From Spirochaetota bacterium (lineage in GTDB: Bacteria > Spirochaetota > UBA4802 > JAGODF01), in assembly GCA_017998375.1 (NCBI GenBank), contig JAGODF010000002.1, forward strand, positions 1 through 43,723: 43,723 nt of DNA, given 5' to 3'. Both the position numbers and the translations under genes were made by a program. Below, piece by piece: positions 35,769-40,096 of the stretch. Positions within the stretch are counted from its first letter, which is position 1. The number at the start of each line of letters is the position of its first letter. The notes below the pieces were generated by a model, which saw nothing but the letters and a program-made list of their open reading frames with translations, was not told the origin of the DNA and did not search any database.

Positions 35769-36734
35769 ATGCAGGACAAGAAGGCCGAGGAAAAGAAGGA
35801 AGAAGTACGGGAATTCTCCGAGAATCCCTTCGACCCGGACCGGATGAACCCGGAAGGCGTAATGCGCCATTTCTTCGTCGACGATATCCCGATCATTCCC
35901 GTAGTTTCGCGCACCGGGACCCTCATGGGCATACTCCGTAAAGAGGACATGGTATCCGAGCTGAGCGACCTGGACCGTGTGCGAAAGCAGAAAATCGACC
36001 AGTTCATTCAGAAACTGCTGAAAAAGATGACCTTCGACGACCTCCTCCCCTACATAACGCGCCACAGGGAATTCATGGTCATCAATATTTTCGGCGAAAG
36101 CCAGGGAAAATGGACGCGCCTGCAGCTGCTCGAAGCCAGTGAACAGGGCCTCCACAAAAAGGCCCCCCATGACGCGGAACGACAGAGGGACGACCAGGCC
36201 ATGGAGTGGATGATATACCTGGTCCTGGAGCACATTCCCCGCGCCCTGTACGCCATGAACAACAACGGCAAGACGATGTTCTACAACAGTCATTTCGAGG
36301 ATTACATCGTGCAGACACTCGGCACGGATTATGAAATCGGAGCTATCGAGAAATCACTTGCAGCACCGGATAAAAACGATTTTTACTACAATGAAAACGA
36401 CGAAATTCTCTTCTACAATCAGGATTTCGGCTTCTATTATGAAAAAGTGCCCATGATCAGCAGGGACCAGACCGCGGGTTTCCTTGTTTTTTGCGACAGG
36501 GAATCCAATATACCGGTGACGGCCCTCACCTCGAAAAAGAACCTGAAAAAGCAGTCCCTGGATGATCGTCTTGCGACCATCGAGAAAATAATACTTACGG
36601 AGAGCCTCAAGGAGCACGGGAACAACCCCGATAAGGCAGCCTCGGCTCTCAAGATGAAAGTTACCGTCCTGAAAGCAAAGGCCAGAAAATACGGATTGAC
36701 CCTGAACAAACAGGCTGTTAAGAAAAAAAAGTGA
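35769..36734 (+). CDS. CBS - PAS-like - Fis-type HTH (HTH_8) regulator lacking an AAA+ domain
   Basis: ORF trimmed to ATG 35769, 1 nt after the dapB stop. CBS-like IPIIPVVSRTGTLMGILRKEDMVSEL. PAS-like VLEHIPRALYAMNNNGKTMFYNSHFEDY. C-terminal IEKIILTESLKEHGNNPDKAASALKMKVTVLKAKARKYGL resembles the Fis/NtrC DNA-binding helix-turn-helix. Confidence 0.65.
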   Translation: MQDKKAEEKKEEVREFSENPFDPDRMNPEGVMRHFFVDDIPIIPVVSRTGTLMGILRKEDMVSELSDLDRVRKQKIDQFIQKLLKKMTFDDLLPYITRHREFMVINIFGESQGKWTRLQLLEASEQGLHKKAPHDAERQRDDQAMEWMIYLVLEHIPRALYAMNNNGKTMFYNSHFEDYIVQTLGTDYEIGAIEKSLAAPDKNDFYYNENDEILFYNQDFGFYYEKVPMISRDQTAGFLVFCDRESNIPVTALTSKKNLKKQSLDDRLATIEKIILTESLKEHGNNPDKAASALKMKVTVLKAKARKYGLTLNKQAVKKKK

Positions 36735-36743
36735 ATATTTTTC

Positions 36744-36771
36744 TTGACTAAAAAAAAACTGGAATTATATT
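36744..36771 (+). promoter_or_regulatory. candidate sigma70-type promoter of rho
   Basis: TTGACT (36744-36749), 16-nt A-rich spacer, TATATT (36766-36771). This would give a ~330-nt leader before ATG 37109. Confidence 0.35.
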
Positions 36772-37108
36772 TGTTTTATTATTCGATTATACCCTCTATC
36801 CCCTATTACAATTTCACTCATGATTAAATTACTGGCACGCGCGTTTTCCCGGTGCTTTATCCCTGATTAACGGCTCAATACACTAAAGTTTCAAGATAAC
36901 AGGACTTCTTGCTTAAATGTTTTACCAGCAGCGCGCTCCGCAGCACGGACATAACCCCGGAGCATTATCGGGCAGATACGATTGAAATTGGTTTACCGCC
37001 TGGACGTTTCAAGCAATCAATTACAATAACGCCCATAACCAAGACGATACATTGCCGGCTTGCCTGAAAACCCGGTATTCTATCAATATTACATCCCAAA
37101 GGTGATCT

Positions 37109-38524
37109 ATGGCACGATTATCCGAAACACCACGGCATCAGCACAAGCCCAAACCCGTTGAGAGCGAGGTCCCGGCAACAGCTCCCGCTGCCTCCGCGGC
37201 GCCTTCCGCGCCAGCGGGACCGCGGCCCAACAGCAACGGTAACGGCCAGAGAAAGGGCAACCCTTCAGAAAACCGCCTCGACCTGGCCGAACTCAAGAAT
37301 AAAACCATCAATGAACTTTTCTCTATAACGAAGGAAATGGCCCTTGAGGGGATGTCCGGCCTCAAGAAGCAGGACCTCATTTTCGAAATCCTGAAGGCCC
37401 AGACAGAGCGAAACGGCCTTATATTTTCCAGCGGCGTCCTGGAAATTCTGAACGACGGCTACGGCTTCCTCCGTTCGCCCAACTACAATTACCTTCCGGG
37501 CCCCGACGACATTTACGTCTCCCCTTCACAGATCCGGCTTTTCGGTCTCAGGACGGGCGACACGGTGACCGGGCAGATACGGCCCCCCAAGGACAATGAA
37601 AGATTTTACGCGCTGCTGCGCGTTGAGGCTGTAAACTACGAAAACCCGGAAAATCTGCAGCGACGGTTCTTCTTCGACAATCTCACTCCGCTGTATCCGA
37701 TGGAGAGGATCAACCTCGAGACCGAGTCAGAGAACATCGAGATGCGCATAATGAACATCACGACGCCAATCGGAAAGGGCCAGCGCGCCCTCATCGTTGC
37801 GCCGCCGCGCACAGGAAAAACGATACTTCTGCAGAAAATAGCGAACTCCATCACCACGAACCATCCCGAGGTGGCGCTTATCGTCCTCCTCATTGACGAG
37901 CGCCCTGAAGAGGTCACCGACATGTCCCGCTCCGTCCGCGGGGAGGTGATATCGTCCACCTTCGACGAGCCTGCCTCCCGCCACGTCCAGGTGGCGGAGA
38001 TGGTGCTGGAAAAGGCCAAGCGCCTCGTGGAGCACAAGCGCGACGTGGTCATCCTCCTCGACTCCATCACCAGGCTGGCGCGCGCCTACAACCAGGTGGT
38101 TCCCACAAGCGGAAAGATCCTCTCCGGGGGCGTCGATTCCAACGCCCTGCACAAGCCGAAACGCTTTTTCGGAGCCGCCCGGAACATAGAGGAAGGGGGC
38201 AGCATGACCATCCTGGCCACGGCCCTGATAGATACCGGCAGCCGCATGGACGAGGTCATTTTCGAGGAATTCAAGGGCACGGGCAACTGCGAGCTTCACC
38301 TTGACCGGAAACTGGTCGAAAGGCGCATTTTCCCCGCCATCGACATGAACAAATCAGGTACCCGGAAAGAAGAACTTCTGCTTGACGGGGACGAGCTAAA
38401 TAAAATATGGATACTCAGGAAGGTAACTTCGGGCATGAGTCCCGTCGAGGCCATGGAGCTGCTTACCGAGAAAATGAGGGCCACGAAGAACAACAAGGCG
38501 TTCTTCAAGGCCATGAACACCTAA
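37109..38524 (+). CDS. rho: transcription termination factor Rho (with ~56-aa low-complexity N-terminal extension)
   Basis: Rho_N helix bundle starts at [15 protein letters not shown] (residue 57). Cold-shock-like RNA-binding domain [14 protein letters not shown]. Walker [35 protein letters not shown] before the ATG. Confidence 0.97.
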
Positions 38525-38538
38525 AAGGAGTAAAGGTC

Positions 38539-38739
38539 ATGAAAAAAGGGATTCACCCGGCGTACGAAGAAACAGTAATAAAATGCGCCTGCGGCAACGA
38601 GATCAAAACCAGGTCCACGATTCCGAACCTCAGGATCGATATCTGCTCTAACTGCCACCCGTTTTACACGAAGAAGCAGAAGCTCATCGACAGCACCGGA
38701 AGGGTGGAGAAGTTCAAGAAGAAATACAAAATCAAATAG
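38539..38739 (+). CDS. rpmE: 50S ribosomal protein L31 (Zn-ribbon type)
   Basis: [21 protein letters not shown]...[28 protein letters not shown]. 66 aa. SD AAGGAG upstream. Confidence 0.93.
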
Positions 38740-38748
38740 TATTCTTCC

Positions 38749-38785
38749 GCGGGGCGGTTATATCCAGATATTCCCGCCCCTTTTC
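38749..38785 (+). terminator. rho-independent terminator of rho-rpmE
   Basis: GGGGCGG..ATATC-CA-GATAT..CCGCCCC followed by TTTT, starting 10 nt after the rpmE stop. Confidence 0.8.
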
Positions 38786-39148
38786 ACTTTCCTGCTTGTC
38801 TACTCATACTTTCTTATCAAATATTCTTACTGAATAGTTCCATATGAGTAAATATTACACACGTCAAAACTTGATCAATGTGTAAAAAATACCCACTTTA
38901 CTGACTACTCCTATTTTAGCACCAACTTACTAACTTTACCAGGAAATCAAAATCCACTGCTTTCCTGGCACTGTACAAATCATGATTTCAGTTCTCTTTT
39001 TTTTGTTTTTTACTAAAATTTGTATAATCACTAAAATCATGATGACTCATTATCATCCCAATAATTACACGTTTCATTTATATTGTTAACAAACAATAAT
39101 TTTAATAATTTTCTAAATATTTCCAGCAAAGACACAAACTTCATCGCT

Positions 39149-39165
39149 CTGGCACGATACTTGCT
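39149..39165 (+). promoter_or_regulatory. sigma54 (-24/-12) promoter
   Basis: CTGGCACGATACTTGCT matches YTGGCACGrNNNTTGCW at all specified positions. The predicted TSS near 39175 lies ~22 nt upstream of ATG 39198. Confidence 0.65.
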
Positions 39166-39197
39166 TTTTAATAGAGTGTTACTCGATGGAGATTATC

Positions 39198-40034
39198 ATG
39201 AAAAATTATCACGCGGGCGACGAGTCAAGTCTCAATAACTACTTTTCATCAATCAACAGGATATCCCTTCTCACGCAGGAAGAGGAATCCGAACTGGCAA
39301 AATCCAAATGCGAGGGTGACGAAAGGGCGAAGGAAAGGCTCATAAAATCAAACCTGCGCCTGGTGGTGAAGATCGCCAAGAACTATACCTCCATTGAACC
39401 ATCCATAATAGACCTTATCCAGGAAGGAAACCTGGGCCTTATTCGGGCAGCGGAAAAATTCGACTACAGCATGGGATGCCGTTTTTCGACCTACGCGTCC
39501 TACTGGATAAAGCATTACATAACCCGCTTCATCGCGAAGCGCAGCAGGGCGATACGCATCCCCATCCGGAAGGGCGACCTCCACAAGAAGATCAAGAAAG
39601 CCCGTGAAATTCTCATCAGCGAGAACGGAAGGGAGCCCGTTTCCGTGGAGATAGCCGAGCTTCTCGGGATATCCGAGCGCGAAGTGAACGATATAATCGA
39701 AGTCTTCCAGCCCACGGTGTCCCTCGAGTACCCGCTGAACGACGGAGACTTCAGCCTGCTCGAAATCGTCCAGGACGAGACCACCAAGTCGCCGGATTTC
39801 AGCTTCAGCAAAGACGAGCTGAAGAAGATGCTCGACGAGGCGCTCAATTCACTGATGGACAACGAGAAGAAGATACTCAGAATGCGCTTCGGTTTCGACG
39901 ACGACCGTTCCGTTACGCTGAAGGAAGTAGGCCACAAGTTCGGCATCTCTGCGGAAACGGTGAGGCAGATAGAATCGAGGGCGATGAGCAAGATAAAGCA
40001 GAAGTTCGCGCACCTTCAGGACTATCTCGATTAG
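39198..40034 (+). CDS. sigma70-family alternative sigma factor, group-2/RpoS-like (no region 1.1)
   Basis: Region 1.2 (YFSSINRISLLTQEEESELAK). Region 2 (NLRLVVKIAKNY, DLIQEGNLGLIRAAEKFD, RFSTYASYWIKHYITRFI). Region 4.2 (TLKEVGHKFGISAETVRQIESRAMSKIK). ATG 39198 has SD GGAG 6 nt upstream; ATG 39186 is an alternative start. Confidence 0.85.
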   Translation: MKNYHAGDESSLNNYFSSINRISLLTQEEESELAKSKCEGDERAKERLIKSNLRLVVKIAKNYTSIEPSIIDLIQEGNLGLIRAAEKFDYSMGCRFSTYASYWIKHYITRFIAKRSRAIRIPIRKGDLHKKIKKAREILISENGREPVSVEIAELLGISEREVNDIIEVFQPTVSLEYPLNDGDFSLLEIVQDETTKSPDFSFSKDELKKMLDEALNSLMDNEKKILRMRFGFDDDRSVTLKEVGHKFGISAETVRQIESRAMSKIKQKFAHLQDYLD

Positions 40035-40065: not shown

Positions 40066-40096
40066 GTGAGAGGTTCCCCACCTCTCATTTTTTTTG
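40066..40096 (+). terminator. rho-independent terminator of the sigma gene
   Basis: TGAGAGGT-TCCCC-ACCTCTCA followed by eight T residues, 33 nt after stop 40034. Confidence 0.9.

Follow-up and report, generated by a model that had tools for sequence, protein, structure and literature searches.

An RpoN-type promoter element upstream of a predicted RpoS orthologue in an environmental spirochaete and its recurrence across Spirochaetota

Introduction

The Lyme spirochaete controls its virulence through a central switch, the sigma54-sigmaS cascade, which tends to be described as peculiar to Borrelia. A chromosomal locus from an uncultured Spirochaetota bacterium raises the question whether the same circuit is also found outside this genus. 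The DNA concerned (contig JAGODF010000002.1 of assembly GCA_017998375.1, positions 1 to 43,723 of the forward strand; this whole stretch of 43,723 nt is called the window in the following) contains a gene for a sigma70-family factor of 278 amino acids, which is directly preceded by a -24/-12 element of the kind recognized by RpoN (sigma54). A first reading of the sequence (the original prediction) had taken this arrangement for an RpoN-to-alternative-sigma cascade and had regarded such wiring as rarely documented outside of Borrelia. The comparison with related genomes reported here suggests that the element at 39150-39165 is very probably a functional sigma54 promoter of a monocistronic spirochaete RpoS-type gene, orthologous to rpoS (BB0771) of Borrelia burgdorferi, which would make the locus part of an RpoN-to-sigma cascade.

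The promoter element and its gene

In the sequence CTGGCACGATACTTGCT at 39149-39165, the GG (39151-52) and GC (39163-64) dinucleotides are located exactly 10 nt apart, and TGGCACGATACTTGCT matches the extended consensus TGGCAC-N5-TTGCW with zero mismatches, ending 32 nt before the ATG of the sigma gene. It represents the sole zero-mismatch -24/-12 match in the window. A scan of both strands of the window and of 80 related loci, 0.88 Mb in total, yielded 34 such sites, all 34 of them directly 5' of a sigma gene and none elsewhere. A position weight matrix (PWM) trained on 82 orthologous sites, with that of the window left out, gave a score of 25.5 bits for TGGCACGATACTTGCT, compared to a training median of 24.5 bits and to 15.5 bits for the second-best match in the window, 10 bits below. 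The original prediction had given the sequence, its coordinates, the fit to the consensus and the GG-N10-GC spacing correctly, and the possibility it had raised, that motifs of comparable quality might turn up by chance, is not borne out by any site in the 0.88 Mb other than those at sigma genes.

As judged from the usual geometry of sigma54 promoters, counted from the C of the -12 GC, transcription would be expected to start near 39176, leaving a leader of ~22 nt that is predicted to be without structure (-2.4 kcal/mol, z +1.0). The leader length, the Shine-Dalgarno motif GGAG and its distance of 6 nt to the ATG at 39198 agree with what had been proposed before, and the orthologues contain a GGAGG-like element at the equivalent position. 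The ATG at 39198 is the conserved start, because the orthologues are 278 amino acids long and begin with MK or MR at the homologous position. A further ATG in the same frame, at 39186, probably does not serve as start codon.

The gene product contains the regions Sigma70_r1_2, r2, r3, and r4 of Pfam, all above cutoff, and region 1.1 is absent. It stays under the cutoff of every NCBIfam equivalog compared, reaching 257.7 bits for the RpoD equivalog (cutoff 572) and 228.3 and 220.7 bits, respectively, for the proteobacterial RpoS models TIGR02394 (cutoff 378.7) and NF004207 (cutoff 394). Its earlier classification as a group-2 or RpoS-like factor instead of the housekeeping one thus stands, as based on the presence of regions 1.2-4, the lack of region 1.1, and the score below the RpoD cutoff. 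Since the gene is flanked by an intrinsic terminator on each side, it forms a single transcription unit. Both terminators fold as predicted, in accordance with the isolated unit postulated previously, and that of the preceding rpmE gene shields the sigma gene from 5' read-through.

Conservation of the pairing across Spirochaetota

A scan of the GTDB species genomes with the sigma protein retrieved 80 loci, all of which code for short sigma factors of 259-291 amino acids. The members of this family (~278 amino acids, from metagenome-assembled genomes (MAGs) of Spirochaetota) show sequence identities of at least 53%, with a sharp fall to ~47% for the true RpoDs. Of the 85 assessable loci, which do not include L008, as its promoter region is masked by Ns, 84 have a -24/-12 element 5' of the orthologous gene. 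The GG-N10-GC arrangement within the TGGCAC-N5-TTGCW pattern (two mismatches at most) was recorded for 78 of the 80 GTDB loci, mostly at 14-47 nt and in a few cases at up to 187 nt from the start codon. A motif-anchored alignment of 79 loci shows that G1, G2, A4, T12, and G13 are invariant (79/79), while T0 is found in 78 and C14 in 77 of the sequences and the columns flanking the motif are unconstrained. The invariant columns are exactly the contact positions of sigma54, a pattern that points to purifying selection at these sites. The pairing also had predictive value, since a sigma54 site was predicted beforehand for the genes of two unnamed proteins nested in the sigma clade, P0096 and P0119, and both proved to have a perfect one 35 nt upstream.

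Because the pairing recurs in ~84 spirochaete genomes, it looks ancestral to the phylum and not like a speciality of Borrelia. The comparison thus suggests that it is near-universal in the phylum, and supports a spirochaete-specific origin of the factor called "RpoS(Bb)" in Borrelia. In the openly searchable literature (subscription papers being outside this scope), sigma54-driven rpoS is documented for Borrelia only, and no report of a phylum-wide conservation of the pairing was found; a comparative-genomics preprint on spirochaetes from 2025 contains no mention of sigma factors. The notion that the wiring is rarely documented elsewhere therefore holds for the literature, but not for the genomes, where it is the rule across Spirochaetota, and the locus in the window is accordingly to be regarded as orthologous to the system of Borrelia rather than as an independent invention.

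Some variation is seen among the members of the family. The element is located 109-187 nt before the start codon in L037, L045, and L078, so that some lineages on the Treponema side should have long leaders. In L086 (4001-5002) and L087 (4001-5179), the family members are extended at the N-terminus (333 and 392 amino acids); both have kept perfect sites 35 nt upstream, and L087 retains the rpmE-...-sigma-HGD-D neighbourhood as in the window. The gene order rho-rpmE-sigma is common to 38 related loci. Many MAGs of the subgroup containing the window (L001-L033) have been labelled Leptospiraceae, Leptospirales, or Leptospira by their submitters, and cultured Leptospira are described as being without RpoS (PMC12655853, PMC4758666).

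Relation to the RpoS of Borrelia

The RpoS proteins of Borreliella (P0156, 266 amino acids) and of relapsing-fever species (P0155) were retrieved with an X-padded query of 268 amino acids, built on a Borrelia peptide decoded from the published primers and probe of an rpoS qPCR (PMC1976401). Borrelia RpoS proteins are 266-267 amino acids long, and the sigma factor of the window shares 37% identity with P0156 over 259 amino acids (E 1e-48). The Borrelia rpoS loci carry the sequences TTGGCACAATTTTTGCAT and TTGGCATGATTTTTGCAT at 59-62 nt 5' of the start codon, which match the published promoter primers, and the dependence of Borrelia rpoS on sigma54, Rrp2, and BosR has been established experimentally (PMC1976401, PMC3037356, PMC2940757).

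In a bootstrapped neighbour-joining tree (277 columns; 32 RpoDs, E. coli RpoD, and E. coli RpoS as outgroups), the short spirochaete sigma factors and Borrelia RpoS form one clade with 99% bootstrap support, which bears on the placement relative to RpoS and RpoD that had been asked for with the original prediction. The outgroup protein closest to the clade is E. coli RpoS (80% for the enlarged clade). Within the clade, Borrelia joins a core of Spirochaetaceae and Treponemataceae (80%), and the subgroup of the window receives 86% support. A strict test of monophyly failed at first because P0096 and P0119 fell within the clade; the conflict was resolved when both proved to belong to the family, with extended N-termini and perfect sigma54 sites. 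The residues P122-I123-R124-K125 are invariant in the alignment of the family and align with VPYRK of P0156, while RpoD contains PVHM at this place. By this alignment, the P-[IY]-R-K motif of the window corresponds to the R121/K122 pair that follows region 2.4 in RpoS(Bb) and has been discussed as promoter-selectivity residues (PMC6719511). A positional comparison shows different contexts, rho-rpmE in the window and flgJ...tsaD in Borrelia. The Borrelia order flgJ-rpoS-deacetylase-tsaD is common to 27-35 loci. Within the Borrelia-side clade, the rho-rpmE context is seen in six loci (L039, L040, L044, L047, L052, and L054), which therefore bridge the two gene arrangements.

Against this assignment, it has to be considered that by raw identity the sigma factor of the window is nearer to the C-terminal parts of RpoDs (~45%) than to Borrelia RpoS (37%), and that the tree is distance-based, with no spirochaete RpoD in its outgroup, since the loci retrieved do not encode any. 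A competition of hidden Markov models (HMMs), in which Borrelia RpoS scored 263 bits with a Treponema-side model, 241 bits with an RpoD model, and 197 bits with a model of the window's subgroup, separates the groups weakly and was not relied on. The clade, the shared motif, and the promoter taken together nevertheless indicate that the sigma gene of the window is the orthologue of B. burgdorferi rpoS. The ancestry of "RpoS" from Borrelia was called into question by Chiang and Schellhorn (2010) and also by Hengge (2011), both as cited in PMC6719511, and the former authors regarded BB0771 as having arisen by a separate duplication. The score of the window protein below the TIGR02394 cutoff and the position of E. 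coli RpoS outside the clade agree with the latter view, and an ancestral, phylum-wide cascade (see below), if true, would settle where BB0771 comes from, placing it in a group-2 sigma family specific to spirochaetes.

Tandem dyads as a putative enhancer

Aligning the intergenic region of the window with those of close relatives revealed two dyad-symmetric sequences, TGAGTAAATATTACACA and TGTGTAAAAAATACCCA, with the consensus TGTGTAA-N3-TTACACA. Each of the 32 loci in the subgroup of the window contains such dyads, 166-447 nt 5' of the -24 element, and in 30 of these loci they occur as two copies with a start-to-start distance of 31-34 nt. Counting sites with two mismatches or fewer, 56 were seen where 0.2 would be expected from shuffles. 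The dyads are retained in loci whose 5' gene is not rpmE (L002-4 and L009), and they therefore go with the sigma promoter. None were found in the scanned loci of the Borrelia/Treponema-side clade. The conserved tandem dyads of the window's lineage are a new addition to the known module and, with reservations, probably represent the enhancer of the sigma promoter, as judged from their layout.

The layout resembles that of a textbook case, the glnAp2 promoter of E. coli, which combines a -24/-12 promoter with two 17-bp dyads approximately three helical turns apart, as in the window. The NtrC sites of glnAp2 are 32 bp apart and centred at -140 and -108 (PMC5159524), whereas the dyads of the window are located farther upstream, at approximately -290 and -325 from the predicted transcription start. 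The two systems also differ in their targets, since glnAp2 serves nitrogen assimilation and the predicted target in the window is a sigma factor gene. As to the sites themselves, those of NtrC share the 7-N3-7 geometry, with TGCACCA as half-site instead of TGTGTAA.

Proposed mechanism and alternatives

The mechanism that would follow from these data starts with RpoN holoenzyme, which would bind to the GG and GC elements and form a closed complex. This complex would then be opened, with hydrolysis of ATP, by an AAA+ enhancer-binding protein resembling Rrp2 or NtrC, which together with RpoN would be encoded elsewhere in the genome. The activator would probably bind to the dyads at 38845-38861 and 38879-38895, ~270-305 nt upstream, and loop across the A/T-rich spacer, so that transcription would begin near 39176. 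The sigma factor produced would redirect core RNA polymerase to a regulon of its own, completing a two-step sigma cascade. The cascade as originally predicted is supported by the almost complete occurrence of the promoter footprint and by the clade shared with Borrelia RpoS, the sigma54 dependence in this organism being predicted from sequence.

Several observations weigh against this interpretation or its parts. Searches for the GAFTGA motif, the Walker A motif of bacterial enhancer-binding proteins (bEBPs), and the RpoN box gave 0 matches in the six frames of the window and the 80 loci (~12 kb each), and no rpoN or bEBP gene is located within 6 kb of the sigma gene in any of these loci. None of the large open reading frames (ORFs) of the window is an rpoN or bEBP gene either, so that motif and ORF searches agree with the previous statement that the window lacks rpoN and AAA+ activator genes. 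Since GAFTGA and Walker A motifs are missing from the window and the loci, the activator must be encoded elsewhere. Typical enhancers are located 100-150 bp upstream of their promoters, and the dyads of the window are farther out. One assessable locus, L028 (JAKQUI010000003.1), has no -24/-12 site within 700 nt 5' of its sigma gene, which shows that the wiring can be lost; this lineage has apparently lost or replaced its sigma54 promoter. Finally, L021-L027 contain a third, single dyad (GTGTAAA-N-TTACACA) ~60-90 nt 5' of rho, ~2.1-2.2 kb 5' of the -24 element of the sigma gene (e.g., L021 3762-3778). The dyad-binding factor may therefore not be a bEBP, and the additional site suggests that it has targets besides the sigma gene. 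As to RpoN itself, rpoN has been reported in Leptospira and Borrelia (PMC4758666, PMC3037356).

The third dyad leads to the alternative that survives best, namely that the dyads are operators of a separate regulator modulating the sigma54 promoter, in analogy to BosR. This appears possible, if somewhat doubtful. A candidate is encoded between dapB and rho (35769-36734), a protein with an N-terminal CBS-like part, a middle part without domain assignment, and a C-terminal HTH_8 domain (found in 5/5 orthologues, best E 1.6e-7), which is without an AAA+ domain, gives PDB profile hits to NtrC4, FleQ, and ZraR in their DNA-binding domains, and is encoded in synteny in 20 loci of the dyad-bearing subgroup. 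The several targets suggested by the single dyad 5' of rho would suit such a factor, as would the situation in Borrelia, for which Rrp2 has been reported to be enhancer-independent and BosR to bind beside the promoter (PMC3037356, partly by way of its reference 24). On the other hand, L021-L027 contain the dyads with no copy of the CBS-HTH gene next to rho, and tandem 7-N3-7 sites spaced by ~32 bp are the textbook layout of a bEBP enhancer. A role of the CBS-HTH protein as dyad binder is therefore a speculative assignment.

An unlikely alternative is that the gene is mainly or additionally transcribed from a sigma70-type promoter, either TTTACT-17-TAAAAT at 39009-39037 or TGTATAAT, which is located within this candidate at 39022-39029; the transcript would then have a 5' untranslated region of ~160 nt containing the -24/-12 sequence. 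The site was found by a consensus scan, and the stretch TTGTATAATC is conserved in the closest relative, L001. Lybecker and Samuels are said to have described a long sigma70-dependent rpoS transcript in Borrelia in 2007. However, the candidate matches the consensus at 9/12 positions only, a level of agreement to be expected in DNA so rich in A and T, and it is not kept beyond L001, whereas the -24/-12 element is phylum-wide. A search for 8-mers common to the upstream regions of all 83 loci returned only A/T-rich words.

The last alternative, by which the motif would be a chance match or the site of an unrelated factor and the gene an ordinary sigma70-transcribed rpoD paralogue, could be argued from the lack of an rpoN or activator gene in the window and from the observation that the pattern with two mismatches allowed is not commoner there than in shuffles, but may safely be dismissed, since all 34 perfect sites in the 0.88 Mb are at sigma genes, GG and GC are kept at fixed spacing in 79 loci, and the same site of Borrelia is experimentally sigma54-dependent, so that the comparative data effectively refute chance.

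Returning to the sigma54-driven cascade, its evolutionary extent can be stated with less assurance than its presence in the window. It seems slightly favoured by the data that an RpoN-to-RpoS-type cascade is ancestral and phylum-wide, from environmental lineages labelled Leptospirales to Treponemataceae and Borrelia, and that the lineage of the window has kept a tandem enhancer, read possibly by the CBS-HTH protein or a bEBP, which was lost on the Borrelia/Treponema side. Such a loss would fit with an enhancer-independent Rrp2 and the recruitment of BosR.

Comparison with known systems

The locus in the window very probably represents an RpoN-RpoS module of the Borrelia type in an environmental spirochaete, and for the window alone the result is confirmatory. 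The Rrp2-RpoN-RpoS system of B. burgdorferi shows the same promoter architecture, TGGCAC-N5-TTGCW directly 5' of rpoS/BB0771, and both sigma factors are group-2-like, lack region 1.1, and have the R-K motif in common. Differences concern the gene context (rho-rpmE-sigma versus flgJ-rpoS), the distance between element and start codon (32 nt in the window versus 59-62 nt in Borrelia), and the upstream region, where the lineage of the window has its tandem dyads at 166-447 nt and Borrelia is without them. Instead, direct repeats for BosR (TAAATTAAAT) adjoin the Borrelia promoter, and Rrp2 is reported to act independently of an enhancer (PMC3037356). The hk2 gene is located ~5.5 kb 3' of rpoS in Borrelia, whereas no hk2-rrp2 is found near the sigma gene of the window. 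Moreover, the organism of the window is uncultured and probably free-living, unlike Borrelia.

Proteobacterial RpoS (sigma-S/sigma-38) is likewise a truncated RpoD-like sigma factor with regions 1.2-4, but E. coli rpoS is not transcribed by sigma54, unlike what the promoter of the window gene predicts. Transcription of a second sigma factor gene by sigma54 is also known or predicted from RpoN-FliA cascades, such as the control of fliA by RpoN and FlrA or FleQ in Vibrio and Legionella, and from a predicted sigma54 promoter at enterobacterial rpoH. FliA and RpoH belong to group 3 and are not homologous to the RpoD-like group-2 factor of the window. Sigma-32 and Borrelia sigma-S have been named as indirect routes of sigma54 control (PMC3162934).

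If the pairing is indeed ancient and includes free-living lineages, the Borrelia pathway would be a repurposed ancestral circuit of stress response or adaptation. It would also provide a concrete predicted target for the uncharacterised sigma54 activators of Treponema and environmental spirochaetes, and would predict the first target of Rrp2 from Treponema denticola, an unstudied protein predicted to be a sigma54 activator (PMC12070737). In the lineage of the window, the conserved dyads may serve as a sequence handle for finding the cognate activator.

Coordinates and further features of the window

The window represents chromosomal DNA of housekeeping type from an uncultured member of the Spirochaetota and contains the genes for aconitase, nusA-infB-pnp, dapA-dapB, a conserved unknown protein, rho, rpmE, the sigma factor, an HGD-D-like protein, and gltD-gltB. 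The features around the sigma gene are listed in Table 1. A comparison with Rfam gave no match to an RNA family in the window.

Table 1. Positions of the sigma gene, its predicted control elements, and neighbouring features in the window.
Feature	Position	Strand	Basis or remark
CBS plus NtrC/Fis-type HTH_8 protein, 321-338 aa	35769-36734 (listed ORF from 35718)	+	Between dapB and rho
rho	37109-38524	+	Rho domains in Pfam; precedes rpmE
rpmE (ribosomal protein L31)	38536-38739	+	5' neighbour of sigma gene; Pfam Ribosomal_L31, 5.9e-33
Intrinsic terminator of rpmE	38751-38785	+	Inverted repeat I5; hairpin 38751-38780, -17.5 kcal/mol, z -3.0, then UUUU
Distal dyad TGAGTAAATATTACACA	38845-38861	.	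Half of candidate enhancer (upstream activating sequence); consensus TGTGTAA-N3-TTACACA
Proximal dyad TGTGTAAAAAATACCCA	38879-38895	.	34 nt from distal dyad; 271 nt 5' of -24 element
Sigma70-like promoter candidate TTTACT-17-TAAAAT	39009-39037	+	Consensus scan, 9/12; possible secondary promoter
Predicted sigma54 (RpoN) -24/-12 promoter TGGCACGATACTTGCT	39150-39165	+	Consensus scan, PWM, orthologue alignment
Predicted transcription start	39175-39177 (+1 ~39176)	+	Geometry of sigma54 promoters, from C of -12 GC
Shine-Dalgarno motif GGAG	39188-39191	+	6 nt 5' of ATG 39198
Spirochaete RpoS-type (group-2-like) sigma70-family factor, 278 aa	39198-40034	+	Pfam, homologues, tree; stop codon ends at 40034
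Intrinsic terminator of sigma gene	40066-40096	+	Hairpin 40066-40088, -12.4 kcal/mol, z -3.2, then U8

The second-best PWM match of the window, CTGGAATTATATTTGT at 36760 (15.5 bits), is not regarded as a sigma54 site, because it contains GT in place of GC at -12 and overlaps with a good sigma70-type promoter of rho (TTGACT-N17-TATATT, 36745-36778). A further sequence 5' of rho, TGGCACGCGCGTTTTC (36833-36850), is without the GC of a -12 element, and both matches are probably due to chance.

The intergenic region between rpmE and the sigma gene contains a second CTGGCAC (38965-38976 region) without a -12 element, which adjoins the sequence AAATCATGAT. The latter occurs in two exact copies (38977-38986 and 39034-39043), 57 nt apart, which are part of a larger inverted repeat, ATCATGATTTCAGT / ACTAAAATCATGAT. 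Neither the pair of copies nor the second CTGGCAC is conserved in any relative, and these window-specific features were hence left uninterpreted. As a last observation, Rho carries an N-terminal low-complexity extension of ~60 amino acids rich in Ala, Pro, and Asn (37109-37290), with its Rho_N domain starting at residue 61.

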